Assembly (NCBI GenBank): GCA_038997165.1
Contig: JAWBAK010000001.1
Location: forward strand, 372,595 to 436,594
Direction of reading: 5' to 3'
Length of the DNA stretch: 64,000 nt
Source: Candidatus Aenigmatarchaeota archaeon
GTDB taxonomy: Archaea; Aenigmatarchaeota; Aenigmatarchaeia; CG10238-14; SpSt-28
Shown: positions 9,229 through 49,581 of the stretch, piece by piece
Layout: each line of letters begins with the position of its first letter
Position numbering within the stretch: the first letter of the stretch is position 1
Made by a program: the position numbers and the translations under genes
Notes under the pieces: generated by a model
Seen by the model: only the letters and a program-made list of their open reading frames with translations
Databases searched by the model: none
What the model was told of the DNA's origin: nothing

Positions 9229-9328
9229 GCCGGGGTGGCGGAGCGGTTTCACGCGGCGGGCTGCAGGGTTTTGCGATTTATGAGCGATAGAAACCCGCAG
9301 ATCCCGGGTTCAAATCCCGGCCCCGGCT
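9229..9328 (+). tRNA. tRNA-Cys(GCA) with 26-nt intron (9267-9292)
   Basis: GCGGG-CT GCA G[intron]A-CCCGC; U73. Confidence 0.93.
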
Positions 9329-19489: not shown

Positions 19490-19616
19490 TGCGGGGGGTG
19501 GGATTTGAACCCACGACGGCTCTACGCCATCGGGTTTCTTATCATTTATTCAAAGCTTAAGATTTTATATCTTTATCTTAAGCCCGACGCCCTTGGCCAG
19601 GCTAGGCGACCCCCGC
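19490..19616 (-). tRNA. tRNA-Leu(TAA) with 41-nt intron (19536-19576)
   Basis: TCGGG-CT TAA G[intron]A-CCCGA; long variable arm; A73. Confidence 0.93.
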
Positions 19617-19659
19617 TTATAATTTAAATTACATCAAATTAATTTAAATTAATTTAATT

Positions 19660-21069
19660 TTAAGCTTGATCTTGAATATACTTTTCTCCTCTTTTTAATT
19701 TTTCAAAAGCTTTTGTTATTTCTTTTCCTAAATATAAGGCATGATCATATAAACTAAAAAAACTTCCGCCTTTTAAGGAATTGTATATTTCCCAAAAATC
19801 TTTACTTTCGATTTTAAAATCTATTAAAGAATTATCTGGGGTTCTATGTTCTAAAACTATTTTATCATTCTCTTGATAAATTAAAAATAAACCTTTTGGA
19901 TCTTCTACAAATTCTTTCATTTTAAATGAATATTTGTTCAATATTTCTCTTACTAAATTCCAATCATGTTTATAAATATGTGCACTTGTAGAAATTGTTG
20001 TTATTGTTCCAATTTCAAAATTTGATTTAGTTTCTTTATTTATTTCATTAACGATATATTCTGCTAATTTTATTTGTGCTACAATATTTACTGGCCACGC
20101 TTTAACCATATCATTACTTCTAATCCAAACAGTATGATTATAATAATTTTCTGTTATTATTCCTTGAATACCTATTATGCATGGTGGATTTGAAGAATTT
20201 TGATCTATTAAATGATCCCAAGAAATAATTAAAGCTCTTCTTGAATAAGGAGCTTTAGATAATTTATCAATTAAATATTTAACTTGATTTTTTCCAAATC
20301 TATGTTCAAAAATTCTTTCTCCATATGTATATTCTACACTTTCTAATTTTTTTGGATATAGAACTTCATTAATGTGCCTTTCAAAATCTTCTCTTTTCAA
20401 AAATTCAAAAAATTCTTCTTCAATTTTATATTCTTTACCATATAGACCTATAGTAATCATTAAATTTAAAAATTCTTTTTGTGGTTCTTCGTATTCTGAA
20501 AATTTTATACTTCCAAATTTCATTATTAAATCTAAAATTTTTATCCATGCTCTAAAAATACTTGTATCATATATAAAGCTACCGCTTAATGGAATTGGCC
20601 AAGAAGTTAATTCTACTTTTTCTTCAACTATTATATCAATTTTTTCTCTAACTTTTTTTGCATTTATTTTAAAATTTTTTTCTATTTCTTCTTCGAGTTT
20701 TTTAATATTATTTCTTTTAAATTCTTCTCTTAAATCAATAATTTTAACTGTATTTAAAATATTTTCAATTTTATTTATTGGAAAAACTATTTTATAATCT
20801 TTAAAATTTTTGTTTTTAAAAACATCGATTAAAGCTTTTCCACTCAAAGATAAATCAGCACCGTAAATTATTAAAGTATCTATTTTTGGAAATTGTGCTA
20901 ATGTTTCTAAAATAAAATTAATTCCGTAAGTTGTATAAGTAGTTCCAATAATTCCAATTTTACTTCTTATTTTCTCTTGTAGTTGATTTAAAATTATTTC
21001 TTTTTTTGACCATAGAGTTGATATAGCAATATTACTATTTTCATTTAAGATTATTATATCTTTTTTCAT
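19660..21069 (-). CDS. thyA: Thymidylate synthase (ThyA) fused to an N-terminal MtrA-like and a C-terminal DUF4346-like domain
   Basis: TYGERI, SRRA, PPCI, RSND and SAHIY core; N-terminal TLWS...GADLSLSG; C-terminal DPKG...HALYLGKE...YIQD. Confidence 0.85.
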   Translation of the reverse strand: MKKDIIILNENSNIAISTLWSKKEIILNQLQEKIRSKIGIIGTTYTTYGINFILETLAQFPKIDTLIIYGADLSLSGKALIDVFKNKNFKDYKIVFPINKIENILNTVKIIDLREEFKRNNIKKLEEEIEKNFKINAKKVREKIDIIVEEKVELTSWPIPLSGSFIYDTSIFRAWIKILDLIMKFGSIKFSEYEEPQKEFLNLMITIGLYGKEYKIEEEFFEFLKREDFERHINEVLYPKKLESVEYTYGERIFEHRFGKNQVKYLIDKLSKAPYSRRALIISWDHLIDQNSSNPPCIIGIQGIITENYYNHTVWIRSNDMVKAWPVNIVAQIKLAEYIVNEINKETKSNFEIGTITTISTSAHIYKHDWNLVREILNKYSFKMKEFVEDPKGLFLIYQENDKIVLEHRTPDNSLIDFKIESKDFWEIYNSLKGGSFFSLYDHALYLGKEITKAFEKLKRGEKYIQDQA

Positions 21070-21105
21070 ATGTTTTTATTTGTTTGAATTAATAAATAGT
21101 TATAA

Positions 21106-22257
21106 ATGATTGAAATTGCATTAGTCGGAAAGCCAAACTCTGGAAAATCTACATTTTTTAAAGCAGCAACTCTAATGGATGTTAAAATTTCAAATATTCC
21201 TTTTACAACATTAAAACCAAACAAAGGAATTGCTTACGTATCAACTCAATGTGTTTGTAAAGAATTTAACGTTAAGTGTAATCCACAAGATGGATTTTGC
21301 ATAGATGGATTAAGATTTGTTCCAATAGTTCTTTGGGATGTTCCAGGATTAATTCCAGAAGCTCATAAAGGAAAAGGTTTAGGAATAGAATTTTTATCAG
21401 CTATAAATCATGTAGATGGAATTGTTTATATAATTGATATAAGTGGTAAAACTGATTTAGAAGGAAAAGAGATAGAATTTTTAAATCCAATAGAAGAAGT
21501 AAAATTTCTTATAAATGAATTGGTTCAATGGTATAAACAAAATATACAAAAACACATTCCTAAATTTTTTAAAGATAAAAAAGAATTAATAGATGTTTTA
21601 TCTCAAAAACTTAGTGGATTAAAAATTAAAAGGGAACATTTAGAAAAACATATTGATAAAATAGATGATTTAAATAATTTTTCTAAAGCGCTTTTGTTTG
21701 AAAGTAAAAAAATGATTATTGCTGCAAATAAAATTGATGAAAAAAATTCTGAAAAAAATTTAAAAGAATTAAAAGAATTTTTAGAGAAAGAAAATATTAA
21801 TATAAAAGTTGTTGAATGTAGTGCATTAAGTGAATTAATTTTAAGGACTTTAGATCAAAAAGGAATAATAAAATACAATTTTAAAGATTTTGAAATTTTA
21901 AAGAAAAATGAATTAAGTAATGAACAAATAAACGCATTAGAAAAAATTAGAGAATTGTTAAAAAAATATAATGGAAGTTTTATATTGAATGTTTTAAATA
22001 CTTTAGTTTTTGATGTTATGCAATATAAAGTTGTTTTTCCTGTTGAAAATGAAAATAAATTAAGCGATAAAAAGGGAAATATTTTACCAAATGCAATTTT
22101 ATTAGAAAAGGATGCAAAAACAATAGATTTAGCAGAAAAAATTCATTCTGAAATAGCTAAAAATTTCTTATATGCAATAGAGGTTAAAAGTAGAAAAAGA
22201 TTAGGTAAAGATTATATTTTAAATCATAGAGATATAATAAAAATATATCATGCATAG
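21106..22257 (+). CDS. ychF: YchF/Obg-family ATPase/GTPase with TGS domain
   Basis: GKPNSGKST, PFTT, DVPG, NKID, C-terminal TGS. Confidence 0.9.
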   Translation: MIEIALVGKPNSGKSTFFKAATLMDVKISNIPFTTLKPNKGIAYVSTQCVCKEFNVKCNPQDGFCIDGLRFVPIVLWDVPGLIPEAHKGKGLGIEFLSAINHVDGIVYIIDISGKTDLEGKEIEFLNPIEEVKFLINELVQWYKQNIQKHIPKFFKDKKELIDVLSQKLSGLKIKREHLEKHIDKIDDLNNFSKALLFESKKMIIAANKIDEKNSEKNLKELKEFLEKENINIKVVECSALSELILRTLDQKGIIKYNFKDFEILKKNELSNEQINALEKIRELLKKYNGSFILNVLNTLVFDVMQYKVVFPVENENKLSDKKGNILPNAILLEKDAKTIDLAEKIHSEIAKNFLYAIEVKSRKRLGKDYILNHRDIIKIYHA

Positions 22258-22306
22258 TCAGAAGTACTCCTTTTCATCATTATTCAGATGCGGCGGCATT
22301 CTTCAT
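22258..22306 (-). ncRNA. C/D-box sRNA
   Basis: ATGAAGA - ATGCCGCCGCAT - CTGA - ATA - ATGATGA - AAAGGAGTACTT - CTGA: canonical boxes with two 12-nt guides. Confidence 0.88.
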
Positions 22307-22340
22307 AAAGTAATTTAAATAATTTTTATAAATTTTTTAA

Positions 22341-23621
22341 TCAAATTAAATGTGTTGGAAGCTTTTTTATAAGTCCGTTATCATATAATAATTTTAAATA
22401 TTTACCTTCAAGAAGTTCGTTCAACACATCTTTTTGCTCTTTTCCTTCTTTTACTTCTCTTTTAATATAATCTAAAGTAAGCTTTAAAGATCTAAGAATA
22501 TCTGTACTATTTATTTTTTCTTTTTCACAGAGACTTAAAAGATCTTCATTTAAAAGTCTTTCTATTTCTTTACTTGTTAGATCACCTCCCAAAAAATGTA
22601 TTTTAATTATTTTTTGAAATATTAGATCTATACTTATTGCACTTTTAGAAAATAATAAACTATTAACAATATATTCAGTCAAGTTTTTAATCAATTTTGT
22701 TTTTGGTTTTATTCTACCGGAAATTACTAAGGGAGAAAAGGCTGCTAAAGTTAGTAAATCTTTTTCTTCTTTTGATAAAGAGTTTTCTCCATAAGCAAGT
22801 ACAATTGGTTCAGCATGAAAACATAAGGGTCCTTTCATTATTTGTTCTCCATCTTTTATTATAATAAATCCTTTTATTTCATTACAAAAAAGAAAGCAAG
22901 AATATTTATCTTTTTTATCTTCTTTATAAATGGAAATTGAAACTGAAGGATAATAATAATGAAGGTATTTTTTCATTTCCTCTTTATGTTTTAGTACGTC
23001 ATCCAATATAAGATAGCTATTTTGAGAAAGTAGATATTCTATTTTTTCCTTCAAAATAGAATAATGAAACCACAAAACAAAATTTTTAATATTAGAAATA
23101 CCATATATTTGAGCGATTTGAATTAGAAATTGTGGAAAAAGAGATAAAAAAAATATATTTTGAGAAATAAGTTCACCTATTTCTTTTATTTTTTCTTCTC
23201 CTATTTTTTCTTCTAATTCTAATCTTTTTGCTTCGAGATATTCTCTCATTTTTTTTTAATTTTTCTCTACTTTTCTCATCAATTTCTATTATGTTTTCCC
23301 TTATTTTATTTCTTATTGAAGATGTTAGCTCTTCCAATTCTTCTTGAATAGGTTTGCAAACTCTCATAAAAATTTCATAAGATACTAATGCGCTTGCAAA
23401 ATCACTAGTATCACATTTGGACGAAATAATAATTTCATTTGTTGGTACATAATAAAAACTACTGGGGGGGGGGGGAATTTTGCCAATATAATATTAAGAT
23501 TTATCCTTTCCCAATCAATATTTAATGAAAGATTTTCTTTTATTCTATAAAGTTCTTTTTCAAATCGATTTATAATTTCTTTGGAATTTTGAAAGTTATT
23601 GTATTCATTATGTTTATTCAT
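22341..23621 (-). pseudogene. Hypothetical gene of about 425 aa, split by frameshifts at a C12 and an A9 tract (pseudogene, phase-OFF allele or assembly error)
   Basis: ORFs 23385-23621, 23173-23367 and 22341-23249 join into one frame if C12 becomes C10/C13 and A9 becomes A8. Confidence 0.7.
23464..23475. repeat. G12/C12 homopolymer
   Basis: 12 consecutive G on the + strand in an extremely AT-rich sequence. Confidence 0.95.
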
Positions 23622-23684
23622 AATTTGTATAAGGATAGATTATTAAAATAAGTATTAGAAGTATCAAAGAACTATTTTTATTAT

Positions 23685-23824
23685 GCCGGGGTCGCCTAGC
23701 GGAAATGGCGCCGGCCTCGAGTTAAATGATAAGCTCTGGGGTAGCTGAAAGATAATGATGATTTTGTTATAAGAGAAAGCCGGTGGGCTCTAAGCCCGCG
23801 TGGGTTCAAATCCCACCCCCGGCG
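23685..23824 (+). tRNA. tRNA-Ser(CGA) with 56-nt intron (23722-23777)
   Basis: CCGGC-CT CGA G[intron]A-GCCGG; long variable arm; G73. Confidence 0.93.
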
Positions 23825-23940
23825 AAATTTTATTTTAGATTAATATTAGAAAAATTATTTAATTCATTTGATTTAAATGTTTAAAATTTAGTTTTAATTT
23901 TCTTTAAAAATAATCGATTTAAAAGAAATCAAAAAATGTT

Positions 23941-24918
23941 TTAAAGTTTCTCTATAATATTATCTTTAACTCTAAAAACTTTTCCTAAGAATTTTTCTAT
24001 AGTATAAATATTTGTGAGCGTATGATTTGTAATTTCTTCAACTTTTACTATAGACTTTTCTTCACATAATGCCAAATAAATTAAAATTTGATCTGCCATA
24101 TACTTATCTAAGCACGCATTAGAATTTTCAGCATTTTTTAAATTGTTAATAGCAATCTTTGAATTTTCTAAACTATCGCTTCCTAAAACGCAATTTTCAT
24201 AATAAGATGCAATAGTAACAGAAAAACCTTTACTTAATGTTTTTTCATTTCTTACATATAGTTCAACTTCTTTTAATTCGTTTTTTATGATTTCAGTTTC
24301 TTCCCTTATTCTTTTTTCATTTTCAAATGCAGATATTCTTGCTACATACTTTATAAAATTCTTTCTTTCAATCATTTCTACACCATTTAATTTTTTTATT
24401 GGGTAAATTTCTATTTCAACTATTCCTCCACCTTTTGGATAAAACCCATGTCTTACTATATTAATTTCTGGTTTTTCTATGCCTAAAAATTTTAAGTTTT
24501 CGAATTTAACTAAATCTATATAATCTATTGTTGGTGCATGTAATACACATGTACCACCAATTATTCTTAGTTTAACTTTTTTATTTGATAAAAAAGCTAT
24601 TATTGGATATATAGTTTGCAAAAATAGAGAAATGCTACCAGCAGTTCCAATATTAATTTCTTCAAAATTTGGAATATTTTCTTCTTTCGGAATAAATTCG
24701 ACTTCAGTACTTCCAATAAATAATCCTTTAACTTCCGCATTTAATAATTTAGCTGCAAATTTTGCTCCAGCCAAGTGCTGAGCTTTCAATCCTGGTTGTG
24801 GTCTATTTTTTCTAATATTATAAATTCTAAAAGGTTTTTTAAGAATGCAAGATAAAGCTATTGAAGTTCTTAAAATTTGACCACCACCTTCTAAATAGCT
24901 ACCATCGATTTCGATCAT
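23941..24918 (-). CDS. rtcA: RNA 3'-terminal phosphate cyclase
   Basis: IDGSYLEGGGQILR, PGLKAQH, GFYPKGGG, ADQI, TNHTLTN. Confidence 0.96.
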   Translation of the reverse strand: MIEIDGSYLEGGGQILRTSIALSCILKKPFRIYNIRKNRPQPGLKAQHLAGAKFAAKLLNAEVKGLFIGSTEVEFIPKEENIPNFEEINIGTAGSISLFLQTIYPIIAFLSNKKVKLRIIGGTCVLHAPTIDYIDLVKFENLKFLGIEKPEINIVRHGFYPKGGGIVEIEIYPIKKLNGVEMIERKNFIKYVARISAFENEKRIREETEIIKNELKEVELYVRNEKTLSKGFSVTIASYYENCVLGSDSLENSKIAINNLKNAENSNACLDKYMADQILIYLALCEEKSIVKVEEITNHTLTNIYTIEKFLGKVFRVKDNIIEKL

Positions 24919-24943
24919 AAAATAATTTTGATTTTTTAAAAAA

Positions 24944-25014
24944 TGGGTCCGCCCGGAGTCGAACCGGGATCTCCGCCTCGTAAGGGCGGCGTCCTACCGC
25001 TAGACTACGGACCC
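24944..25014 (-). tRNA. tRNA-Val(TAC)
   Basis: CCGCC-CT TAC GA-GGCGG on the reverse strand. Confidence 0.93.
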
Positions 25015-25064
25015 ATAAATTTATAAAAAAGATTAAAGTTAAATTCATCTTTATACAATATTGT

Positions 25065-25163
25065 TGGGGCCGCTGGGATTTGAACCCAGGTTAACGGGTT
25101 TCCTCATTTTATCGGTGCTCCATTTCTGGAGCCCGCCGTCCTACCTGGCTAGACTACGGCCCC
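25065..25163 (-). tRNA. tRNA-Trp(CCA) with 26-nt intron (25100-25125)
   Basis: GCGGG-CT CCA G[intron]A-CCCGT. Confidence 0.93.
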
Positions 25164-25202
25164 AATAATAAAAAATTTTTATATTTTTCGATATTAATTT
25201 AT

Positions 25203-25601
25203 ATGGCAGAATTTAGATTAAGAGGATATACATTAGAAGAATTGGAAAAGATGAGTATAGAAGATCTTGCAAAAAAAGTATTTGATTCTAGAACTAGAAG
25301 AAAAATTCTAAAAAGAGGATTTACTGAACAAGAAAAAAAGTTTTTGGAAAAAATTAAAGAAATAAAACAAAAGAATCCAAATAAATTTATAAAAACACAT
25401 TTAAGACAAATGGTAATTTTACCTATAATGGTTGGATTAACAATTGGAGTTCATAACGGAAAAGAATTTGTGCCAGTGAAGATTAAACCAGAAATGATAG
25501 GCAGAAGATTGGGCGAGTTTTCAATTCCTATAAAAGAGGTAAAACATGGTGGTCCAGGAATTGGAGCTACTAGAGGAACTAAATTCTTATCTGTTAAATG
25601 A
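25203..25601 (+). CDS. rps19: 30S ribosomal protein uS19
   Basis: [24 protein letters not shown]. Confidence 0.97.
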
Positions 25602-25951
25602 TTGCTTCAGCATATATTAAAAATCTTAGAATTTCTACTAAGCATGCAACATACATATCTAAAATTATTAGAGGCAAAAATGCGTTAAAAGCAAAAAAAT
25701 TTTTAGAATTAGTTGCTAAGCAAAAATTAACTTTAGATGGTAAAAAGTATTATTTAAAGGCTACTAAAGCTATACTTAAAGCTTTAGAAAGCGCATTAGC
25801 TAATGCAAAGCAAAAAGGTTTAGATGAAAATAAATTAAAAATAAAAATAATAGAAGCTCATAAAGGTTTTAAATTGAGAACTCCAAAAAGATGGAAATTT
25901 AGAGGTAGAGAAAAGAAAAATACACATATTAAAATTGTCTTATCATATTGA
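25598..25951 (+). CDS. rpl22: 50S ribosomal protein uL22
   Basis: [21 protein letters not shown]; operon position. Confidence 0.93.
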
Positions 25952-25952
25952 T

Positions 25953-26540
25953 ATGGGAGCAACAGAGAAAAAAATAATAGCTCAAAAAATTATTGAAGTT
26001 GAATTAGAAGATTATTTAAAAAGCATATTTGAAAGAGCTGAATATAGCAATTTAAAAGTAGAGAAAACCCCAATATTAACTAGAATAATAGTTTTTGTAG
26101 GAAAACCTGCTATAGCAATTGCTAAATTAAGGAAAAGAGAAGAGGAAATAAAAGAGATACTTATAAAAAAATATAATATTTTAAATCCACAAATTGTAAT
26201 TCAAGAAGTTCAAAATCCATATTTAGATGCAAGAATAGTTGCATATAGAATAAAAAGAGCTATAGAAAGGGGTATAAATTTTAAAAAAGCAGCTTTATTT
26301 TATATAGAGAAGTGTATGGAAAGTGGTGCTACTGGAATAGAAGTTAGAATCTCTGGAAAATTATTAGGTAAAGAAAGAAGTGCAGCTTACAAATTTAGTA
26401 AAGGATATATTTTACATACAGGATTTTTAAAGGAAGTTTATGTTGATGAAGCACTACAACAAGCAATAATACCTGTTGGTATTGTAGGAATAAGAGTTCG
26501 AATATTAAAATATTTACCACAAATAATTTCTGCAAAATAA
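25953..26540 (+). CDS. rps3: 30S ribosomal protein uS3
   Basis: KH domain, NPYLDAR, GIEVRISGK, GIRVRI; ATG start at 25953. Confidence 0.95.
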   Translation: MGATEKKIIAQKIIEVELEDYLKSIFERAEYSNLKVEKTPILTRIIVFVGKPAIAIAKLRKREEEIKEILIKKYNILNPQIVIQEVQNPYLDARIVAYRIKRAIERGINFKKAALFYIEKCMESGATGIEVRISGKLLGKERSAAYKFSKGYILHTGFLKEVYVDEALQQAIIPVGIVGIRVRILKYLPQIISAK

Positions 26541-26749
26541 TGGCAATTTTAAAAATTAAAGATATAAGAAATATGAAAACTGAAGAATTATTAGAAAAAT
26601 TAAAAAATTATAAGGAAGAACTTAGAAAATTAAAGATGCAGACAGAAATGAAAAGGCCTATAAAAAATACAAGTAGAATAAGAGAACTAAGAAAAACTAT
26701 TGCAAGAATTCTTACAGTTTTGAAAGAAAGAAATATAAAAATTAAATGA
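26540..26749 (+). CDS. rpl29: 50S ribosomal protein uL29
   Basis: MAILK...IRELRKTIARILT. Confidence 0.95.
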   Translation: MAILKIKDIRNMKTEELLEKLKNYKEELRKLKMQTEMKRPIKNTSRIRELRKTIARILTVLKERNIKIK

Positions 26750-27042
26750 GTGAAATTTGTCAAATTTGTGGTTTACCAAAGGATTTATGTATTTGCGAGA
26801 GGAAAATAGAGGAAAAAATTATTATTAGAACAGAAAAAAGGAGTTATGGAAAAGTTGTTACTTTAATTAATGGTATTCAAAGAGATAATAAAGAATTAAA
26901 AGAAATAGCAAGTAAGCTAAAAAGTAAGTTGGGTTGTGGGGGAACTATAAAAAATGGAATTATAGAATTACAAGGCGATCATAGGAGAAGAATTAAAGAG
27001 CTACTTATTGAATTAGGATTTAAAAATATTGAAATTTATTAA
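26746..27042 (+). CDS. sui1: Translation initiation factor SUI1/aIF1
   Basis: CGLPKDLC, LKSKLGCGGT, IELQGDH. Confidence 0.95.
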   Translation: MSEICQICGLPKDLCICERKIEEKIIIRTEKRSYGKVVTLINGIQRDNKELKEIASKLKSKLGCGGTIKNGIIELQGDHRRRIKELLIELGFKNIEIY

Positions 27043-28160
27043 CTAATGGCTTCAAAACAAATATTTTTTGATTTTGCATATTCATATGCTTTTTTAATTT
27101 CTTCATAATTTAGTTTTCTGGCAATTTCATCAAATTTTTCTGGAAATTTTAAAACTAAATATTCTGGATGATATTGATCCATAATGTTTACTAAAACATT
27201 TGGTATATTTTTTGAAATCCAATCCAAAACTTTATAGGTGCAACATTCTAAATGATTTGGTAAGACTAAATGTCTAACAATTATATTTTCTCCAAAATCG
27301 TAAATTATCTTATGATTTCTTGAGACAATTTCAAAGTAATTCTTTATTTTACTATATTTATATGCACATTTATTATTTCCATATTTAAAATCTGGTAACC
27401 AAATATCAATAACATCTAATAATAACTCTAGACTTTCTTTTGTCATATACATATTCGAATTCCAAAGCAACGCAATGTTTTCATTAAAATATTTTAAGCT
27501 TTCTAAGATTGTATGTAAATTTTGATCAGGATTACCACCTACAAAATTTATATTTATTGCTCCTTTATCATATAATTCTTTTTCTATTTCTGCAAGTTGT
27601 AAAGAATTTATTTCAAATCCATTTTTTGGATTTTGACTTATGTCCCAATTTTGACAATATACACATTTAAAACTACAGCCAGTAAAGAAAATTGTACCAG
27701 ATGGAATTAGTGGAGCTTCTTCTCCATAATGTAAAAAAGCAGATGCAACTCTAGCAATATTATCTAATCCACATTTTCCTTTTTTTCCTTCTAATCTTTT
27801 TGCTAAGCATAAATTTTCGCAAAATTTACAAGGAGATAGCATTTTATAAGCTAATTCTATTTTAACATCCAAAAAATTGTTTTTATTATTATTATTTTTA
27901 TCTATTTCCTTAATTTCGATATTTTTACCATTTTTTATTTTTTCAAATTTATCTAAAAATTCATTTCTTAATTCAGAATGAATTTTCCAAAGTTCTTTCT
28001 CTTCCAATTCTTTTAAATTTAAATTTTCTTTTAATTTTATGCTCTTTACAATTAAATATTTTGCTTTAACTTCATTTTTTAAAACTTTATAATACCAATT
28101 AAGTCTTTCTTTAACTTCTTTATTTTTCCAAATGTTTATTGCATCTAATCTAAAAATCAT
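27039..28160 (-). CDS. Radical SAM protein (PflX-like)
   Basis: GTIFFTGCSFKCVYCQN, DFKYGN, VRHLVLP; start placed at MIFRLDA. Confidence 0.9.
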   Translation of the reverse strand: MIFRLDAINIWKNKEVKERLNWYYKVLKNEVKAKYLIVKSIKLKENLNLKELEEKELWKIHSELRNEFLDKFEKIKNGKNIEIKEIDKNNNNKNNFLDVKIELAYKMLSPCKFCENLCLAKRLEGKKGKCGLDNIARVASAFLHYGEEAPLIPSGTIFFTGCSFKCVYCQNWDISQNPKNGFEINSLQLAEIEKELYDKGAININFVGGNPDQNLHTILESLKYFNENIALLWNSNMYMTKESLELLLDVIDIWLPDFKYGNNKCAYKYSKIKNYFEIVSRNHKIIYDFGENIIVRHLVLPNHLECCTYKVLDWISKNIPNVLVNIMDQYHPEYLVLKFPEKFDEIARKLNYEEIKKAYEYAKSKNICFEAIS

Positions 28161-28176
28161 AAAATTTAATATTTTT

Positions 28177-29307: not shown

Positions 29308-29327
29308 AAATATTTTAAAGGCAAATT

Positions 29328-29365
29328 ACAAAACAATTAAATGCATACCATTATGGAAATGGTTG
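29328..29365 (+). repeat. Orphan copy of the ATPase-gene 3' end; exact 38-bp direct repeat with 33455-33492
   Basis: ACAAAACAATTAAATGCATACCATTATGGAAATGGTTG occurs at both sites; near-copies end genes 1 and 2. Confidence 0.93.
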
Positions 29366-29407
29366 CTAGAAATTTAAAAGTTATTTTTTTCTGAAATTTT
29401 AATAAAC

Positions 29408-29425
29408 TTCCCTATATATAGGGAA
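29408..29425. promoter_or_regulatory. Perfect 18-bp palindrome, operator-like (half copy at about 29442)
   Basis: TTCCCTATATATAGGGAA just upstream of a TATA-like TTTATTTAAA and the ATG at 29456. Confidence 0.6.
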
Positions 29426-29455
29426 ATATTTATTTAAATCTTTCCCTATATATTT

Positions 29456-30742: not shown

Positions 30743-30834
30743 CAATATAACTACAAGCCTTTTAAAATGTTCGTGATTATTAAAGTTTCATATTATGGGT
30801 AAACTTTTTAAATAATCTTTCCTAAATATATGAT

Positions 30835-32112: not shown

Positions 32113-32130
32113 AAGCTATATAATTTAGAA

Positions 32131-32180
32131 TATGTCACAAGTGACGTAAAATATTAATTTTTTATGTCATAAATGATATA
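32131..32180. promoter_or_regulatory. Pair of operator-like palindromes TATGTCA-N4-TGAYRTA (32131-32148 and 32163-32180)
   Basis: TATGTCACAAGTGACGTA and TATGTCATAAATGATATA, 32 bp apart, flanking an AT-rich TATA-like stretch. Confidence 0.6.
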
Positions 32181-33501: not shown

Positions 33502-33505
33502 TTTT

Positions 33506-34545: not shown

Positions 34546-34719
34546 AAAAATACTTTTATTTTAAATTTATTTTTTCGATTTTCGAAGTTTATATAATTTT
34601 CGAAATTATTTTATTTGTTTTTGTTTTTTCTTAGTTTTTTAAATGAAATTATAGTGTTATTTATACTTGTTAACAATAATTGTTAAATCTATATATTAAT
34701 CGAAAATTGTAATATTAAA

Positions 34720-40700: not shown

Positions 40701-43700
40701 GGAAAAAATATAACTAAGGAAATTTTGAATATAACAAATATTGGAAATAAATTATTAACATTTAATATAAGCCTAGAAGGAAATGTAACAGAAATATTGA
40801 GCTTAGTTGAAAATTATAAAGAAATAAATCCAGCTCAAAGCTTTGTTCTTATTGCAAATATTAGTCCACCAAATTACTTATCGATTTACGAAGGAAACAT
40901 TTCAATAAATGAAATTAAACTAGGAATTAAAAAGGTACCAATAAGAATAGAAGTTTATCCTGCTGAAATAGTTATTAATTATCCAAATTCTGAAGCTCCA
41001 ATTATAGATGTTTTAGAGAATCAAAAAATAGAAATAAATTTAACTTTTAGAATAGGAGATGAAATAATAACTTCAAACACATCTTTTACAATTTTAATTT
41101 CTAATAATACATGCAATATAAGTAAAGTAGAAGTAATAAATGATAATTGGATAATTGAATGTAGCTTACCAAAAAATGAAGATGGAAAATGGCATGATTT
41201 AACTATAAAAGCTTATTATGAAACTTATGACATTTTAGTTGAAAAAACAGAAGTTAATGCAATATATTATAAAGATATTACTCCACCAAAATTAATTTCA
41301 AAAGAAATTCCAAGCGTAGAATTTCCAAATAACGTAACAATAAAATTAAATTTAAGCGATAATGTAGCTATAGATAAAGTTTTAATGTATATAAAGCAAT
41401 TAAACAAAACTTATGAATTATTAACAGAAAATAACATTACTTGGGAAATTACGATAGAAAATTTGGAGCCAAACGATTACGATTTAATATTTATAATAAA
41501 CGATACAACAAACAATACATTAATATTTGAAGATTATTTTGAAGTATACGTTTCTAAAAACATTTGGGTTAATATAACAAATAGCAGAGATGAATATGTT
41601 AGCATAAACTTTACGTTTTATAGAAATAATACAAATCAAATATTGCAAAAAGAATATGTATATGGATATAAAAACTTTACAGTTCATTTAAGAACTTACG
41701 ATTTATTAATAGAAAGTAATGAGGCAAAAATAAAATTATATAACTTATCTACTTTTGATTTACCAGACGATTTTATAAAATACGATAAAGTTTATCCAAC
41801 AGAAGTAAATCTTTATAAGCCTTTAGGAGGCTTTGCAATAATAACTCCAATAGAAATCGATTCAACAATAAGAATTTATTATGACATTTCAATAGCTCAG
41901 CAATATGGAGCAATAGAGGATAATTTAAAAATAATTTATTGTAATAGCTGGGACTTTTATCAAAAAACTTGCTCAGAATGGATTCAATTACCTTCTAGAG
42001 TAGATAAAAGATATAAATTTGTAGAAGCAGAGACTAAATTTAAACAAGGAGCATATTTAGTTGCTGAAGGAATAAGAAAAGAAGCAAGATTAGATATTTA
42101 TGATCCATTACCAATAGATGTTCATCATTGGCAAAAATATACTATTAGATTTACTATTCAATCGAGCGGAACAGATCCAGTAAGTAATATAAGAGTTGAA
42201 TGTTTATATGGAACTGTTTGCTATGAATTTAATCCAGAATATATTCCATTTGTAGGAACTTTAATGCCTGGAGAAAGCAGAGAAATAGAAATTAATGTAA
42301 CAATTCCAGCTGGTTATAATGCAGGAAATTATGTTGGAACATTAAGAATTATAAGCGCAGAAGGAATAGAAAGAATTACATATCTAAGAGTTAATGTTTT
42401 AAATAACTATAGTTTTATTACTAATGATTATTTCGAAGTTAAAAAAGGAAAAGGCTTTGGAGTTTTAACCAATTTAACAATAAAAAGCATTGCAAATAAC
42501 GATTTATTATTAAAAATAAATACTTCTCAAAACATTTCAACTCTAAGTGAATTTATTTTAAGGAAATTAGAAGAAAAAACAATTCCAATATATTATAATT
42601 TAGATAAGGAAGGAAATTATTTAGAAAAATTAATTTTACATAACGAGACTCTTAATATTTCAAAGGAAATTCAGTTTAATATAACAATTGTTAACTTTAC
42701 AATATTTTTATTAAATCCAACAAATCAAATAGAAATTTATCCAAACCAAACTCTAAACATTTCTTTAAAAACATTTTTTGAAGAAAAAGAAATTAAAGAA
42801 AATATTTCTTTTAGAGTTTTCTTAAACGAAAAAGAATGCAAAATAATTAATATTACTTATAATGGATCGTTTGAAATTTCTTGTATAGTTCCAATAACAA
42901 AAGTTTTTAACGATTTAATAATAGAAGCATCTTATGGAGAATTTACTTCTTATTTAAAGAGAGAAAATTTAATTAAAGTAATAGATAATATAGAACCAAC
43001 AGTTAAAATTCATACTCTTGATTTTGAAATAAACAAAATAAACGAAATAATTGCCGAAATAGATGATAACGATATTATAAAAGAAGTAACTTTTGTTTTA
43101 GTATTTCCAAATCAAACAGAAATAGTTTTAATTCCAGAAAAAATAGATAATTTATATAAATCTAGCGTTTTTATAGAAGAAAAAGGAGATTATTTAATAA
43201 AAGTTATTGCTATAGATAACTCTTCTAATTCGAAAATAGAGCAAAAGTTAATAAGAGCTGGGGAAAAAGTTAGAATTACTACAAAAGCTATCGATATAGA
43301 TAATAAAATTGTAAAAATGTATATAGATTTAATTAATCCAATTTCTAATCAAAAAGAGTATGAATTAAGACCAGATGAAAACGCAACAATAAATCAAACA
43401 ATATTTGCTGGAAAATATAATTTAAGAATAAAAATAGAAGATTCTGAAATAATTTATTTCGATGTTATTATTAACAAATCCATAGATGATATAGTTAAAA
43501 TAGATGTATTTAATGTTCATTTGGCAAACATTTCTAAATTAAGAAATAGATTTTTTGCGTTTGCAATTAAAGAAAATTTCGAATTTAATAATTATACATT
43601 AATTTTTGATATTTCTCAACATTCTCATTTAATTTTAAAGGTCGAAAATTTAAGAATTTATAAGTGTAAAGATTGGATATTAGAAAGTAGAGAATGTAAT

Positions 43701-46160
43701 TCAACTTGGATAGAAATAATTCCAAAAATTGATTTAAAAGCTTCAAAAATATTTTTCGAATTTAATTCAAGCTCAGCATATTTATTTGCAGAAGCAGTAA
43801 TATGTGGAGATGGAATTTGTGATATATTAGAGAATTGTAATAATTGTCCAATTGATTGCGGTCAATGTCCAACAACACCTTCTATACCTTCTATACCATA
43901 TACCTCGCCTATAAGAGAAGCTCCATTACCTTCTATTGATTATTCAAAAATGCAAGAAATTCTAAAACAAATTGCAGAAAAAATAGAGGTTAGAACAGAA
44001 GAATTGTATTTTGAGTTAAAGCAAGGAGAAAAAGAAATTAAGAAAATATACATAGCAAATAATAAAGAAAAGGATGTTTATGCAGAGATAGAGCTTTATG
44101 GTGATATTGTTAAGTTCTTGAGGTATGCAAACAAAAGGATTTTAATAAACAAAAAATCTACAAATTATTTTGAAGTTATTGCTGAGATTCCAAAAGATCA
44201 AGAAGCTGGAATTTATAGAGGATATGCTAAAATAATAATAGAAAATGAATCCTTTATAGTTCCTATAACTGTTAAAGTTATTCCAGCAGAAATGAAACTT
44301 TTAGATTTAAAAATGAGTTTATTAAGCGATAAAGTTAAGCCAGGGGATTATTTAAGAGCAGAAATAATATTATATAACTTAGGAAAAACAAAAAGAGTTG
44401 ATGTTAACTTAACTCTAAGTTTAATAGATAGTGAAAATCTAGTTGAAATTACAAGAGCAGAAGAAAGTTTAGCAGTTGAGACATCTTTAACAAAAATATT
44501 TTCACTAAAAATTCCTAAGGATATAATAGAAAAAAGATATTTAGTTAAAGCAATAGCGACATATTTAACAGAAAATATTAAGCAAGAAGCAGTAGCAAGC
44601 GCATTTGTAACTATTGAAACTCCATTATTGGAAAAAGAAATTTTAGGTATGCAATTAAAAACTTTATTAACTTATTTCTTAATATTTAGCTTTGGTTCAG
44701 CAATTTCTTATATAGCTATAATTTCATACATTAAAAAGAAAGAAAAAGAAAAAAGGTTTAAAGTAACTATAGATTTTTCAACCTTACCACAACCTTCTGA
44801 AAATTCTGCATTTATTGGAAATATTGCGGAAACAGCGAGAAGAGCATTTATTTATTTAGATGATTTAAAAATGCATACTTTAATAGCTGGAGCAACAGGT
44901 AGCGGAAAAACTATTAGTGCAATGGTAATTGCAGAAGAAGCTTTATTAAAAAATAAAAATGTAATTGTTTTTGATCCAACCGCACAATGGACAGGTTTCC
45001 TAAGAAAATGTAAAGAAAAATATATGCTTAAAGAATACTCTAAGTTTGGAATGAGTATTAAGCAAGCAAGAGGTTTTCCAGGAAAAATAAAAATAATTAC
45101 TTCGCCATATCAAAAAATTAGATTAAAAGAAATTATTGAAAATCCAAAGGGAAATATTTATATATTTGTTCTTAATAGATTAAGGCCAGAAGAAATAGAT
45201 ATATTTGTTGCAAACACTATTCAAGAAATATTTAATTCTAGATTAGAAGAAAGTAAAGATTTAAGATGTTTAATAGTTTACGATGAAGTTCATAGATTAT
45301 TGCCAAAATTTGGTGGTAGTGGAAAAGGATTTTTAGCCTTAGAAAGAGGGGTAAGAGAATTTAGAAAGTGGGGAATAGGTTTGGTACTAATTTCTCAAGT
45401 TTTAAGTGATTTTGTTGGAGAAATTAGAGCAAACATAGGAACAGAAATACAATTAAGAACAAGATATGAAGGAGATTTAGATAGAATAAAAATGAAGTAT
45501 GGAGAGGAATTTGTTTCTCAAATAGTTAAAGCAAATATTGGTACAGGAATGATTGTTAATAGCGAATATAATAAAGGAAGACCTTATTTTGTTACTTTTA
45601 GACCAATATTACATCAAGTAACAAGATTAAGCGAAAAAGATTTAGATGAATATGATAAAAGAGATAGAAAAATTGAAGAATTAAAGTTCTATATAGAAGA
45701 ATTAAAGAAGCATGGAATAGACGTTTTTGATATTGAAACAGAATTAAATTTAGCAGAAAGTAAATTAATGCAAGGAGCTTTTGATATTGTTGACATATAT
45801 CTAGAGGGAATAGAACCAAGAATTAAAAAAGAGTTTGAAAAAAGAAAAATTAAAATTCCAAAGTATGAGGAATTAACAATAGAAAAGAAAGAGATAGAAG
45901 AAATAGTTGAAAAAGCTAAAAAAGAAAGAGAAAGAGTAGCTGAAAAAGAGAAGAAAAATTATGAAGAAATACTTAAAGAAATTAACGATATAGAGGAAAT
46001 GATAAAAAACCTTAGAAGAGAGGGAAAAGATACATTTGATTTGGAAATAGATTTAGAAAGGATAAAATCAAGAATAAAAATATATGAAAAAACTAAAGAA
46101 GAAAAAATATTAAATGAAATAGAAGAGATGCTTAATAATATAAAAAGTTTGAAAAAATAA
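34720..46160 (+). CDS. Giant surface protein (signal peptide, beta-helix with Gly-rich repeats, many Ig-like domains, Cys-rich motif, TM) fused to a C-terminal HerA/VirB4-like ATPase; spans an assembly gap
   Basis: Frame is open from 34720 to the gap (36227) and from 36324 to the stop at 46160, in frame with the 3109-aa ORF; the same repeat unit lies on both sides of the gap; HTLIAGATGSGKT, VFDPT, VYDEVHR, RKWGIGLVLISQ. Confidence 0.82.
35797..36664 (+). repeat. Tandem roughly 123-bp (41-aa) Gly-rich beta-helix repeats, at least 6 units around the gap
   Basis: Unit NSIFNLTGGTGGTGG-xx-GSGGSGGISTG(V/I)YLLNSFNNTFFS. Confidence 0.92.
36227..36322. other. Assembly gap (96 N) inside the repeat region
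   Basis: Run of N. Confidence 1.
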
Positions 46161-46166
46161 ACAAAT

Positions 46167-47777
46167 TTATTCAACAACTAAAAAATCTTTATCTTTAATC
46201 GCTTCTTCAATTTGTTTTTTCATAATCTTTATCTTTAATAGCTCTTTTTTTATTTCGCTATCTTCCCCTCTAAATTCTCTTATAACTTCAGATATAGTTT
46301 TTAAGCTATTTCCAAGTTCTTTAAGTACTTTTATAAGATTAAGCCAATAAATATTAACTTTTATTTGAGTTTTTTCTTGAGCTTTCTTTAATGTTTCTAT
46401 TTCTTCTAACAAATTATTAATAATTTTCTTAGTATTTTCTAATTCATTTTTAAAATTGTTTATTTCGTTTAAATTTAAATTAGACATATTTTTTATTCTT
46501 TCTATTTCTTTATTAATTTCTTCAGAATTTTTTTCAAAATTATCCAAATATCTTTGAATTTCCACAACTCTTTCTAATAAATTTTCTATTCTTTTTTGAT
46601 CTATTTCTTTTTTTTGTTTTTCTAAGACAAAATTTTTTAGTTTTTCTATTTCAGAATTTATTTCTAAAAAATTTTTTGAAAAGGTATTTAAGGAATTTTC
46701 TAAGGAAGTATACATATTTAAAATGTTGCTTATTTTATTTTCTACTTCAATATTTAAGTTATTTTTTAAAGAGTTTATTAAATCAAATAAAATTTTAATA
46801 TCTTTTTCTGTTTTTTCAAAAAAGCCTTTTATTTTTTCAATTTCTGTATTGAACGTTTCAATTTTTTCAAAAAAATTTTTTTCTTTTATTATACTATTAT
46901 TTTTGATTTCTTCAATAGTTGTTCTAATTTCATTAAAATTATTTTTAAGATATTCTATATTTGAAAATAAATCCTTTATTTTTTCAATTTCGACTATTTT
47001 TTCTTCTATATTTTCTATTTTACTCTTTAAAGAATGTTGATTAATTTCTAAATTTTTTACAGTATTTTCAATTTTTAAAAAATTTGAAAAAGTCTCAAAT
47101 TGAGGTTTAATTTCTTTTTCTACATAATTTTTTAAAATTTTTATTTCCTCTTTTATGTTTTCAAAAATTTTATCAAATTCTTCAACTTTTTTAATTTTTT
47201 CTAAAACTTCTTCTATCTTTTTTTCTTGATAGGATATAAATATATCTATTTCGTTAATTTTGTTTTCGAATTTGCTAATATCTAAACTATTAATTCTATT
47301 TTTTAATTCATTAATTTTGTTTTCCAAATTTTCTATATATTCTTTTTTTAAATTTTCTATTTTATTAAAAACTTCATTTTTTAAATTTTCAAAATTTTGA
47401 AGATTTTGAGATAACTGATTTTTAATCTGATTTATATCTTTTAATTCATTTTTTAATTTATTTATTTCGTTTAAAATTTCTTTAACAGTATTGAAATATT
47501 CTTTTAATTTTTCAGAAATTTCTTCTACTTTTTCGTATTTTCTTTCTAATTTGGAAAGCTCCAAATTCCTAATTTTTATAATTTCATCTTCCAAATTCCT
47601 AATTTTTAGAGGTAAGTTTTCAAAATTTATTAAAAAGTTTTTAACTTTTTTATCGAATTCATCAATTTTTTTCTCAACCTCTTTTAATTCTTCTTTTAAA
47701 TTTTCAAACTCTTTTTTTTCTGATTTTTTTATTAGGAATTTTTTCTTTATCTCTTCTAATTCTTTTGAAAAATCCAT
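46167..47777 (-). CDS. Long coiled-coil protein
   Basis: 536 aa, E/K/I/L heptad composition, no catalytic motifs seen. Confidence 0.75.
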   Translation of the reverse strand: MDFSKELEEIKKKFLIKKSEKKEFENLKEELKEVEKKIDEFDKKVKNFLINFENLPLKIRNLEDEIIKIRNLELSKLERKYEKVEEISEKLKEYFNTVKEILNEINKLKNELKDINQIKNQLSQNLQNFENLKNEVFNKIENLKKEYIENLENKINELKNRINSLDISKFENKINEIDIFISYQEKKIEEVLEKIKKVEEFDKIFENIKEEIKILKNYVEKEIKPQFETFSNFLKIENTVKNLEINQHSLKSKIENIEEKIVEIEKIKDLFSNIEYLKNNFNEIRTTIEEIKNNSIIKEKNFFEKIETFNTEIEKIKGFFEKTEKDIKILFDLINSLKNNLNIEVENKISNILNMYTSLENSLNTFSKNFLEINSEIEKLKNFVLEKQKKEIDQKRIENLLERVVEIQRYLDNFEKNSEEINKEIERIKNMSNLNLNEINNFKNELENTKKIINNLLEEIETLKKAQEKTQIKVNIYWLNLIKVLKELGNSLKTISEVIREFRGEDSEIKKELLKIKIMKKQIEEAIKDKDFLVVE

Positions 47778-47778
47778 T

Positions 47779-48825
47779 TTAACTTTCAGCTAAAATTTTT
47801 AAAAAATTTAATATTTCAGAAATATTTTTGATAACTTCATTATATTTTTTTTCTAACTCGTTTATTCTTATATTTAAGTCTTTGTATTCTAATTTTGAGA
47901 ATTCCTCAATTTTTTTATTAATTTCATTTTTCATTTTATCGATTTCTGTTATTTGTTTAAATACTACATTTTTTAATTTTTCTATTTCACTTTTTTTAAC
48001 AAAATCGTTTAAATTTATATTTTCTATTTTATTTTCCAAATTCCTAATTTTTAAAATATAATCTTCTAAAATTTTTAACTTTTCAAAAATTATTTCTCTT
48101 TCTTCTTTTAATTTATTTAATGTTTCTCCAAAAATTTTCAGGTCTTGAGAAATTTGAATTGCTTCTATTTTTTTTCTTAATTCTTCTTCATATTCTTTTA
48201 TTTTCTTTAATCTATCTTTAAGTTCGTTTATCTCTTCTTTTCTTATAAAACTACTTGATAAAACTTTTAGCTCGTTTACATCTTTAACAAATTCTTTAAA
48301 TTTTTCTTTTAGTAAAGATATTTCTTTTTTTAATTCTAAAAATTCTTCAAATCTCTTATTCATTTCTAAAAAAATTGCCTCAATTTTAGAAGATGTTGAA
48401 AAAATTTTTGTTTCTGATTTTTTAATTTCACTTAAATCTTTTTTAATATCTTTTTCAATTTTATCAAATTCTTCAAAATCTTTAAATCTAATATAAACTT
48501 TTCTTATTTCTTTTAATTCTTCAATAATTTTGTTTAAAAGAGTTTCATTACTTTCTATTTTTGCATTTATAACTTCTATTTTTGCATAAAACTCATTAAA
48601 TTTTTTAATAATTTCTTCAGGTTTTAATTCTTCAACAATTTTAATAGTTTTTTCAAAGGAAGTTTTTAATTCAGCAATTTCTCTTTCTTTATCTACTAAA
48701 GAGTTTTTAATTTCTCCAATGCGTTCATTTAAAAAAGAAATTCTATTATTCAATTCTTCTTTAATTTTTATTAGAACATCAACTTTGGCTTTTAATTTTT
48801 CTATGTCAACTTCCAAATTTTTCAT
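47779..48825 (-). CDS. Long coiled-coil protein
   Basis: 348 aa, heptad pattern; 1-bp gap to the next gene. Confidence 0.75.
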   Translation of the reverse strand: MKNLEVDIEKLKAKVDVLIKIKEELNNRISFLNERIGEIKNSLVDKEREIAELKTSFEKTIKIVEELKPEEIIKKFNEFYAKIEVINAKIESNETLLNKIIEELKEIRKVYIRFKDFEEFDKIEKDIKKDLSEIKKSETKIFSTSSKIEAIFLEMNKRFEEFLELKKEISLLKEKFKEFVKDVNELKVLSSSFIRKEEINELKDRLKKIKEYEEELRKKIEAIQISQDLKIFGETLNKLKEEREIIFEKLKILEDYILKIRNLENKIENINLNDFVKKSEIEKLKNVVFKQITEIDKMKNEINKKIEEFSKLEYKDLNIRINELEKKYNEVIKNISEILNFLKILAES

Positions 48826-48935
48826 AATATTAATACTATTAGTTATCTATTTTTATTTATTTTAATGTTAAAAATTTTCATTTTATTTTAACATTTTAAC
48901 AAAATCTTTATATATTTATTTAAAAATTAAATATT

Positions 48936-49445
48936 ATGGAATTAATTAGAATAATAATTCTTTCAGCGGCTTTTTTAGTTGTAGTAGGTGTTGGGGGTTT
49001 AATATATAATGCTAATTTTGTTCAAATAGAAGCTGCTACTTCTAATTTTGTATTAGTTTTAGTTGCGTTATTACTTTTAATTTTTGCGGCTTATTTGCTA
49101 TTAAAACAGGATATAAAACTTCAATTCAAAAGATTATTTTTAGAAAAAAGCGATGAAGCAACATTGCTATATGTTAAAAACGAATTAAAAAAATTAAAAA
49201 ATACTTTAGATGAAATTAAAAAAATAAATAAGAGGAATGCAAATAAGGTTTTAAAAAACGTAAAATTAGGCTTAGAAAAGTTAACTCCATATAAACCATA
49301 TTTATCAAATATTTTTATCGAAGGAAAATTCTTGGAAAATATGAATAAAATACTTTCCTTCAATAAAATTACTTCTAACAATCTTTCTGAATTTTCTGTT
49401 GCAATTAAAGAATTAAAAGAAGAATTAAAAGAACTCAATTTATAA
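48936..49445 (+). CDS. Hypothetical membrane protein (two N-terminal TMs plus helical domain)
   Basis: Hydrophobicity pattern. Confidence 0.65.
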   Translation: MELIRIIILSAAFLVVVGVGGLIYNANFVQIEAATSNFVLVLVALLLLIFAAYLLLKQDIKLQFKRLFLEKSDEATLLYVKNELKKLKNTLDEIKKINKRNANKVLKNVKLGLEKLTPYKPYLSNIFIEGKFLENMNKILSFNKITSNNLSEFSVAIKELKEELKELNL

Positions 49446-49480
49446 TTTTTTGAATATTATTGAGTTTTTATTTTATTTAT

Positions 49481-49581
49481 GCCGGGGTAGTTTAGTGGTA
49501 GAACGCCGCGCTCATATTTAATGAGCTTTGAATCGATGATAAGAAACGCGGAGGTCGTGGGTTCAAATCCCACCCCCGGCA
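49481..49581 (+). tRNA. tRNA-Met(CAT), elongator type, with 29-nt intron (49517-49545)
   Basis: CCGCG-CT CAT A[intron]A-CGCGG; acceptor stem GCCGGGG favours elongator Met over initiator Met or Ile2. Confidence 0.9.

Follow-up and report, generated by a model that had tools for sequence, protein, structure and literature searches.

Why do three short transfer RNA (tRNA) introns each carry a stretch antisense to the anticodon loop of their own host, next to letters that resemble the boxes of C/D guide RNAs? The question is raised by a 64,000-nucleotide stretch of contig JAWBAK010000001.1 (positions 372,595 to 436,594, hereafter the window) of Candidatus Aenigmatarchaeota archaeon, a hot-spring archaeon with a small genome (assembly of 652 kb in four contigs; G000 in our numbering). 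Nine tRNAs were located in the window with Rfam, and six of them have an insertion in the anticodon loop: Ser(UGA), Cys, Leu(UAA), Ser(CGA), Trp and elongator Met. The introns of Leu(UAA), Trp and Met had been proposed from the letters to be reduced C/D guides directed at their own wobble base, and the three strings quoted in this original prediction were found letter for letter at the following places:

19490..19616, minus strand: tRNA-Leu(UAA) gene, intron 19536-19576 (41 nt)
19554-19561, minus strand: guide of the Leu(UAA) intron (positions 8-1), position 5 (19558) facing U34 (19580)
19550-19553 and 19539-19545, minus strand: D'-like UUGA and C'-like AUGAUAA of the Leu(UAA) intron
25065..25163, minus strand: tRNA-Trp(CCA) gene, intron 25100-25125 (26 nt)
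25116-25123, minus strand: guide of the Trp intron, position 5 (25120) facing C34 (25129)
25112-25115 and 25101-25107, minus strand: D'-like CCGA and C'-like AUGAGGA of the Trp intron
49481..49581, plus strand: elongator tRNA-Met(CAU) gene, intron 49517-49545 (29 nt)
49520-49527, plus strand: guide of the Met intron, position 5 (49523) facing C34 (49513)
49528-49531 and 49536-49542, plus strand: D'-like UUGA and C'-like AUGAUAA of the Met intron

The intron cores read CUUAAGCU-UUGA-AUAA-AUGAUAA in Leu(UAA), AUGGAGCA-CCGA-UAAA-AUGAGGA in Trp and AAUGAGCU-UUGA-AUCG-AUGAUAA in Met. In all three, guide base 5 upstream of the NNGA pairs with tRNA nucleotide 34, as had been claimed, and bases 2-7 pair with nucleotides 31-36, base 2 lying opposite nucleotide 31 and base 3 opposite C32. 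Judged from sequence, the best reading is that such an intron is probably a minimal, intron-borne C/D-type guide for 2'-O-methylation of nucleotide 34 (Nm34), acting on its own unspliced pre-tRNA.

The tRNA introns of the whole genome were inventoried with ARAGORN in intron mode, which gave 47 tRNA genes, 15 of them with an intron between nucleotides 37 and 38. The introns were placed at this site with the Rfam alignment and a parser of our own, with anticodon stem on both sides and boundaries inferred from the tRNA fold. Six of the 15 ARAGORN labels were wrong (Met as Ser, Gln and Lys as 'Stop', Ala as Phe, Thr and Ile as Ser) and these genes were re-parsed; the tRNA-Ile has the anticodon UAU and a 25-nt intron without boxes (G000:C1:544646-544744, minus strand). 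Seven introns, those of Trp(CCA), Met(CAU), Leu(UAA), Leu(CAA), Gln(UUG), Glu(UUC) and Lys(UUU), share one grammar, in which an antisense to nucleotides 31-36 or 31-37 is followed by one unpaired base, NNGA, 3 to 5 nt and RUGANN. Each of the seven forms 6 or 7 of 7 Watson-Crick pairs at register 0, the register that sets guide base 5 against nucleotide 34, and at most 4 at six shifted registers; the grammar at another register was present in none of the 15. The Tyr intron has C-like letters only. The Ala, Asp, Thr and Ile introns (4 of 15) lack box motifs, which makes the suggestion that tRNA introns here are a general host for guide RNAs an overstatement.

The distribution of the family was investigated with three models. 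Model R1, built from the seven arms of this genome, scores the anticodon stem and five guide pairs; it gave 6-9 matches in each of six same-genus genomes and lower numbers in genomes from the same family and order, and of 101 genomes sampled from the class, 18 had matches. Rebuilt from 54 matches and applied at a threshold of E up to 1e-4, model R2 detected members in 92 of the 151 phylum genomes sampled, representing 61 of 96 genera. The parsed arms rest on 82 fetched match regions (20 + 20 + 22 + 20, the 22 taken from 30 loci) together with the 15 arms of this genome; many same-genus matches and most phylum-wide R2 matches lie outside the fetched set. Six of 40 loci in the first two sets yielded no parse, and the weak matches L029, L037, L038 and L046 were left out. 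Two tRNA-Lys(UUU) genes, L015 (G007:C9) and L028 (G011:C5), were also left out, having an extra insertion in the anticodon arm besides a guide-CUGA-AUGA module. Membership was assigned to arms with a K-loop-like (kink-loop-like) motif and at least five of six Watson-Crick pairs to nucleotides 31-36 at register 0.

In total 89 distinct anticodon arms were parsed, and 76 are members, from ten tRNA species: Met 16, Leu(CAA) 12, Gln 10, Trp 10, Glu 9, Lys 7, Leu(UAA) 6, Arg(UCU) 4, Ser(UGA) 1 and Gly(UCC) 1. Their introns are 22-46 nt long. The 13 non-members comprise eight introns of this genome, two arms with decayed guides (L048, L219), one without a C' box (L206), one tRNA-Cys (L218) and one unrelated arm (L061). 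L206 is a tRNA-Trp (G011:C11:6071-6227) whose 20-nt intron has the guide and UUGA; its gene carries a second insertion directly before the anticodon stem, containing CCGAUGAGAA. An apparent second insertion, in the T arm, is also seen in the mini-intron tRNAs L051, L054, L057, L058 and L064 from other families of the class. A wider pattern scan of all species genomes gave at least 119 loci; among the matches listed, at least 19 are tRNA-Met introns with the grammar and a T-loop, which by record title rather than checked taxonomy belong to Aenigmatarchaeota (9), 'uncultured archaeon' (6) and, one each, Micrarchaeota, Woesearchaeota, Nanoarchaeia and Nanobdellati. When R2 was run on five of those genomes, it returned no further member in G176, G177 and G180, one in G178 and two in G179. 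K-loop modules of different tRNAs within one genome resemble each other more than those of orthologous tRNAs across the genus: all five introns L213-L217 of G006 have UUGA-UUG/UUUG-RUGAA without a tail, and those of the present genome UUGA-N3/4-AUGAUAAGAA. This likeness points to concerted change or to the spread of introns.

As the original prediction anticipated, guide and anticodon covary from genome to genome while the register to the D-like box stays at 5 nt, in 76 of the 89 arms and ten tRNA species. In 73 of the 76 members all six pairs to nucleotides 31-36 are Watson-Crick, and at most four form at shifted registers; guide base 5 is opposite nucleotide 34 in every member. An alignment of 54 sequences had 98.0% of its cells paired, as compared to 69.5% after shuffling (none of 500 shuffles reached the observed value) and 22-51% when the partner was slid by 1-3 columns; this comparison does not give a probability because the rows of the alignment are related. 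Since R1 and R2 reward pairs 32-36, the possibility of an artefact was checked on features outside their scoring. The pair between nucleotide 31 and guide base 2 is one of these, and among the 76 members it is G:C in 53, C:G in 15, A:U in 5, U:A in 1 and mismatched in 2, with switches within Glu, Trp, Met and Leu(UAA). A further model, R3, scores no guide pair at all; it gave 82 matches in 13 genomes, largely at the places found by R1 and R2. Twenty R3 regions were fetched (the full set of ten new regions in more distant genomes, six short regions of G006 and four more), and a guide at a shifted register was found in none of these 20; the exceptions among them were an intron lacking C', a Cys K-loop that has no guide and a single degenerate guide. 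The distance from guide to D' is constant in all 76 members, unlike every other spacer: the linker from the 5' splice site to the guide varies from 0 to 15 nt (first 60 members), the D'-C' spacer from 2 to 10 nt and the tail from -2 to 6 nt.

To avoid circularity in examining the box architecture, only the guide was used to set D', and the first UGA found 3 nt or more downstream was read as C'. D' base 1 and C' base 6 can pair in all 76 members, in three Watson-Crick types (U:A 56, C:G 15, A:U 2) and as U.G in 3, and D' base 2 with C' base 5 is U.U, U:A, C:G or U.G in 73. On the usual assignment of positions, this is the pattern of a box C'/D' motif with tandem G.A pairs, a variable pair and a Watson-Crick pair. 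Neither a C-type box upstream of the guide nor a second D box downstream was found in the 76 members.

Several observations weigh against the proposed guide function. The guide duplex is only 6-9 bp, as compared to the 12-nt guides of the canonical small RNAs (sRNAs) of this genome and the usual 10-12. The terminal kink-turn (K-turn) of box C (RUGAUGA) and box D (CUGA), present in those sRNAs, is absent from the members, and the intron RNA therefore has only one kink motif (K-motif). Natural archaeal C/D ribonucleoproteins (RNPs) have two K-motifs bridged by a Nop5 dimer, and isolated C'/D' halves are reported to be poorly active in vitro. Two decayed guides (L048, L219) and the arm lacking C' (L206) occur among the sequences recovered. 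All members may share one ancestral intron, and the fixed register would thus be partly inherited rather than reflect 76 independent events. Finally, the Cys introns have a covarying K-loop without any guide, and the K-loop may therefore have a role of its own. In the window this type is represented by:

9229..9328, plus strand: tRNA-Cys(GCA) gene, intron 9267-9292 (26 nt)

This intron, which is outside the guide family, has the K-loop-like hairpin GCGA (9273-9276)-UUU-AUGAGCG (9280-9286); a search of it for antisense to its own anticodon loop found none, and the same type was seen in G006 (L218).

A free-standing guide of the same genome bears on the question of register. Canonical two-guide C/D sRNAs with 12-nt guides are encoded here; for example, both guides of the sRNAs at C1:263694-263742 and at about C2:18040-18090 match 16S rRNA. 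A third sRNA (C2:17980-18029) has the internal motif UUGA-UUUA-AUGAUAA, the UUGA-N4-AUGAUAA variant found in the Met and Leu introns, and with its D' guide it matches 16S rRNA at the stretch GGAUUAGAUAC. Its D guide forms 11 bp with the precursor of the following tRNA:

2095..2243, plus strand: tRNA-Ser(UGA) gene, intron 2132-2196 (65 nt)

The duplex covers nucleotides 30-37 and the first three intron bases (2124-2134) with one G.U and ten Watson-Crick pairs, and places base 5 on U34 (2128) and base 2 on A31. Conservation of the D guide extends to three genomes of the genus (G001, G004 and G005), and six genomes share an identical Ser target. A bona fide C/D RNP is thus aimed at a pre-tRNA wobble uridine in the same register as the mini-introns. 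A search for further trans guides to nucleotide 34 of the 47 tRNAs (antisense 6-mer, NN and NUGA) brought out only the Ser(UGA) sRNA, the other hits being at the level expected by chance in this AT-rich genome; a near-match to Leu(UAA) at about C2:18061 was rejected as an rRNA guide. In G007, tRNA-Ser(UGA) has instead a 33-nt mini-intron with its own guide (L010). In G006 the tRNA-Ser(UGA) intron (L241, G006:C12:653-812) contains AACCCUUAAGUG-UUGA, and this 12-nt guide is the D guide of the free sRNA at G000:C2:~18040-18090, with its match to 16S rRNA at C1:491097. It looks as if a guide module had been transferred between an sRNA gene and a tRNA intron inside a single genus.

The main rival is a guide-independent role of the intron as a structural or L7Ae-binding module of the pre-tRNA, which would control folding, splicing order or stability without any methylation. 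The antisense would then mask the anticodon loop and hold a form that lacks the bulge-helix-bulge (BHB) recognised in splicing until a protein remodels it. Such a module would account for the K-loops that the Cys introns retain without a guide and for the single K-motif. It is also consistent with the predicted minimum-free-energy folds of the isolated arm, in which the guide hairpin forms in 46 of 60 arms and the BHB central helix in none of the 13 folds shown; the guide therefore competes with splicing. A mask could, however, sit at any distance from the box, and the exact spacing to NNGA that puts base 5 on nucleotide 34 would be unexplained, as would the canonical trans sRNA that reaches Ser U34 in the same register and a tRNA set that includes four with known C/D targets at nucleotide 34 in Pyrococcus. 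We consider this explanation unlikely, and next to it the guide for Nm34 remains our preferred reading.

The guide reading can be formulated as follows. The intron consists of one C'/D'-type K-loop (NNGA, loop of 3-8 nt, RUGANN) and 6-9 nt antisense to nucleotides 31-36 or 31-37 directly upstream. L7Ae would bind the K-loop and recruit Nop5-fibrillarin, the guide would pair with the anticodon loop and open the 31:39 pair, and fibrillarin would 2'-O-methylate the nucleotide opposite guide base 5, the wobble nucleotide 34. Predicted targets are C34 in Trp, Met and Leu-CAA and U34 in Leu-UAA, Gln, Glu, Lys, Arg-UCU, Ser-UGA and Gly-UCC. The RNA would then refold such that nucleotides 32-35 pair with the 3' end of the intron (...G-AA|A38), giving the BHB form that is cut by the splicing endonuclease. 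The proteins are encoded, as the original prediction called for: fibrillarin and Nop5 by adjacent genes (G000:C1:130593-131249, PF01269, 269.5 bits; G000:C1:131270-131890, PF01798, 155.3 bits) and L7Ae by another (G000:C1:230491-230766, PF01248, 106.3 bits). A second, weaker L7Ae-family match (G000:C1:486636-486890, plus strand, 50.5 bits) contains one TGA within its matched frame. A single open frame of 398 aa encodes the splicing endonuclease, with two PF01974 matches that correspond to catalytic-type domains (C2:3278-3769, minus strand). Replacement of C5-modified uridine (xm5U) by Nm34 in a reduced genome was ruled out by the presence of Elp3 (571 bits); the predicted ribose methylation would therefore come on top of the base modification of U34 instead of substituting for it. 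Window positions 9200-25200 were compared with three metatranscriptome runs from the same study; the runs gave 0, 0 and 8 reads, the 8 fitting only in part and on conserved tRNA parts, which provides no test.

Three modes of action had been offered, in cis on the pre-tRNA, as a small circle after splicing or as a dimer, and the sequences favour the first over the free circle. In 8 of the 76 members (five introns of 22-23 nt in G006, and L026, L047 and L078) the C' box spans the 3' splice site and is completed by exon nucleotides 38/39, with nucleotide 38 pairing with D' base 1. Where the duplex extends beyond nucleotide 37, intron bases fit better in 25 members, mature-tRNA bases in 3, and both equally in 32 (n = 60). 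Because C' crosses the splice site and the duplex prefers intron bases, the unspliced precursor is favoured as substrate and carrier. The alternative that the active guide is the intron after excision (as a linear or circular molecule, single or dimeric), working in trans on mature tRNA or its precursor, draws on the trans action that reviews report for the Haloferax tRNA-Trp intron, the circular tRNA introns known in archaea (PMC7994747) and a half-mer C/D RNA crystallised with its proteins (PMC6239191), and a Nop5 dimer could bridge two one-kink RNAs. Splicing would nevertheless cut the C' box in those eight members, and the pairing past nucleotide 37 fits intron bases over nucleotides 38-40 by 25 to 3; we therefore regard the excised intron as quite improbable. 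Trans action between two precursor molecules is possible.

The complementarity was also compared with that required for splicing. In the BHB geometry used here, two 3-nt bulges surround a 4-bp central helix of nucleotides 32-35 with the four intron bases before its final two, there is an inner helix h', and the anticodon stem stays intact, its 31:39 pair included. In this geometry the intron tail forms 4 of 4 central-helix pairs in 28 members, 3 of 4 in 26 and 2 of 4 in 6 (n = 60); the inner helix h' is weak, by eye only. All introns, family members or not, end in G-A-A before nucleotide 38 with the G facing C32, including all 15 of this genome. The guide is a second, upstream partner of the same anticodon-loop bases and additionally of nucleotide 31; the guide fold and the BHB fold are mutually exclusive, and in shorter members the tail helix overlaps the C' box. 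That BHB helix h is the anticodon stem agrees with PMC2584109. The original prediction had named BHB pairing as a possible sole source of the complementarity, with the box-like letters due to chance or shared descent. The G-AA ends and the tail, in which at least 3 of 4 positions pair in 54 of 60 members, would suit this explanation, but we regard it as already disfavoured and very improbable: the tail pairing uses the 3' end of the intron, not the guide in its 5' part; BHB pairing cannot explain the guide because the guide covaries with the anticodon and with nucleotide 31 inside the anticodon stem, which in the BHB form must pair with nucleotide 39; and chance does not account for the D'1:C'6 covariation and the identity with the sRNA K-loop.

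An intron that encodes its own C/D guide has been described for the tRNA-Trp of Euryarchaeota, presented as a single case in reviews of 2014 and 2024 (PMC4090602, PMC11408192) and mentioned in passing to the same effect in PMC3218864. The intron (Haloferax volcanii; Pyrococcus sR50) goes back to Clouet d'Orval 2001 and Singh 2004, whose work is covered in PMC4090602, PMC11408192, PMC7994747 and PMC2584109. As in the mini-introns, its guide lies in a 37/38 intron, is antisense to its own anticodon loop with C34 5 nt from a D-type box, and acts before splicing, the guide pairing and the BHB fold excluding each other. In contrast, the known Trp intron has ~60-100 nt, C/D'/C'/D boxes and two guides (C34, U39) and is reported only for tRNA-Trp (a 'unique example' in the words of the 2014 review), whereas the mini-introns have 22-46 nt, one K-loop and one guide and occur in up to 10 tRNA species, seven with U34. 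A stable C/D-like RNA was reported from the 66-nt intron that elongator tRNA-Met carries in Nanoarchaeum equitans (Randau 2012, PMC3491384). It resembles the mini-introns in coming from a DPANN archaeon and a tRNA other than Trp and in having box C- and D-like elements. It differs in length (66 nt), in its parts (a single variant box C, a single box D, a GC hairpin) and in being described, with no target or register named in the account drawn on here, for a single tRNA in a single genome, whereas the mini-introns are a family.

Nucleotide 34 is itself an established target. Pyrococcus C/D sRNAs are directed at this position in tRNA-Leu(CAA), Leu(UAA), Met and Trp (PMC7994747), and Um34/s2Um34 (2'-O-methyluridine and its 2-thio form) has been described in Sulfolobus tRNA-Gln(UUG) (PMC7668247). 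According to PMC2584109, the Trp and Met guides pair with intron bases and hence act before splicing, the Trp guide being always intronic and the Met guide 'always exonic', that is, a separate gene; the Met guide is thus free-standing in the archaea covered there and intronic in this lineage. Free sRNAs for nucleotide 34, such as Pyrococcus sR49 and the Haloferax sRNA for Cm34 of pre-tRNA-Met, share with the mini-introns the target nucleotide, some of the tRNAs and the exon-intron pairing, but are encoded as separate genes with two box pairs and 10-12 nt guides (PMC7994747, PMC2584109). Synthetic half-mer C/D RNAs (Xue 2010, cited in PMC6239191) likewise combine one K-motif and one guide with L7Ae, Nop5 and fibrillarin; these are laboratory constructs on the terminal C/D K-turn, whereas the mini-introns would use a natural C'/D' K-loop in cis with the target. 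A search of the full-text literature (subscription journals being outside its scope) found no published one-kink guide introns in several tRNAs, nor a natural half-mer that is built on a C'/D' K-loop and lies in cis with its target. The precedents in print for this minimal multi-tRNA family are the two-guide Trp intron and the Nanoarchaeum Met intron.

What short archaeal tRNA introns are for has long been an open question, and the guide reading provides a predicted, testable function for about half of the introns of one genome and for a whole phylum. For an archaeon of reduced genome that also retains Elp3, it predicts that U34 is ribose-methylated in the tRNAs for Gln, Glu, Lys, Arg, Ser and Gly. 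The C34 isoacceptors Gln-CUG, Glu-CUC and Lys-CUU lack an intron. The one-kink design tests the view that archaeal C/D RNPs need two K-motifs; a natural one-kink guide in cis would, if true, bring the lower bound for an RNA-guided methyltransferase to ~25 nt and offer a compact scaffold for engineering. Chances appear evenly balanced for a bolder version, a phylum-wide natural 'half-mer' RNP in which a single C'/D' K-loop in a 22-46 nt intron suffices for wobble ribose methylation in cis. Delivery of their own modification guide would then be the main reason why these tRNAs keep a 37/38 intron. This version also has guides moving between introns and free sRNA genes, with Ser U34 guided in trans here and in cis in G007, and the 12-nt rRNA guide in the G006 Ser intron, as cases in point.

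The remaining introns and guide RNAs of the window have the larger, two-guide form. Besides the tRNA-Ser(UGA) gene given above, they are:

23685..23824, plus strand: tRNA-Ser(CGA) gene, intron 23722-23777 (56 nt)
22258..22306, minus strand: free-standing canonical two-guide C/D sRNA, AUGAAGA-12-CUGA-AUA-AUGAUGA-12-CUGA

The Ser(UGA) intron reads (G37)UGAUAG-12 nt-CUGA-15 nt-AUGAUGU-12 nt-AAGA and the Ser(CGA) intron AUGAUAA-12 nt-CUGA-6 nt-AUGAUGA-12 nt-AGAA. The statement that all six introns of the window are box-like therefore holds at the level of motifs, while the Cys intron has no guide and the two Ser introns have a full two-guide layout. A genome-wide complement search for targets of the guides of both Ser introns and of the sRNA at 22258-22306 returned only their own antisense or scattered matches. 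The 5' half of the Ser(UGA) intron, (G37)UGAUAG-AUUGGCGUGA-CUGA, is kept in six genomes of the genus (window 2132-2196, L236-L241), with no genomic target found for this conserved 5' guide, and the 3' half is variable across the genus. An archaeal signal recognition particle (SRP) RNA was also located in the window, at 4150-4430 on the minus strand (115.5 bits).

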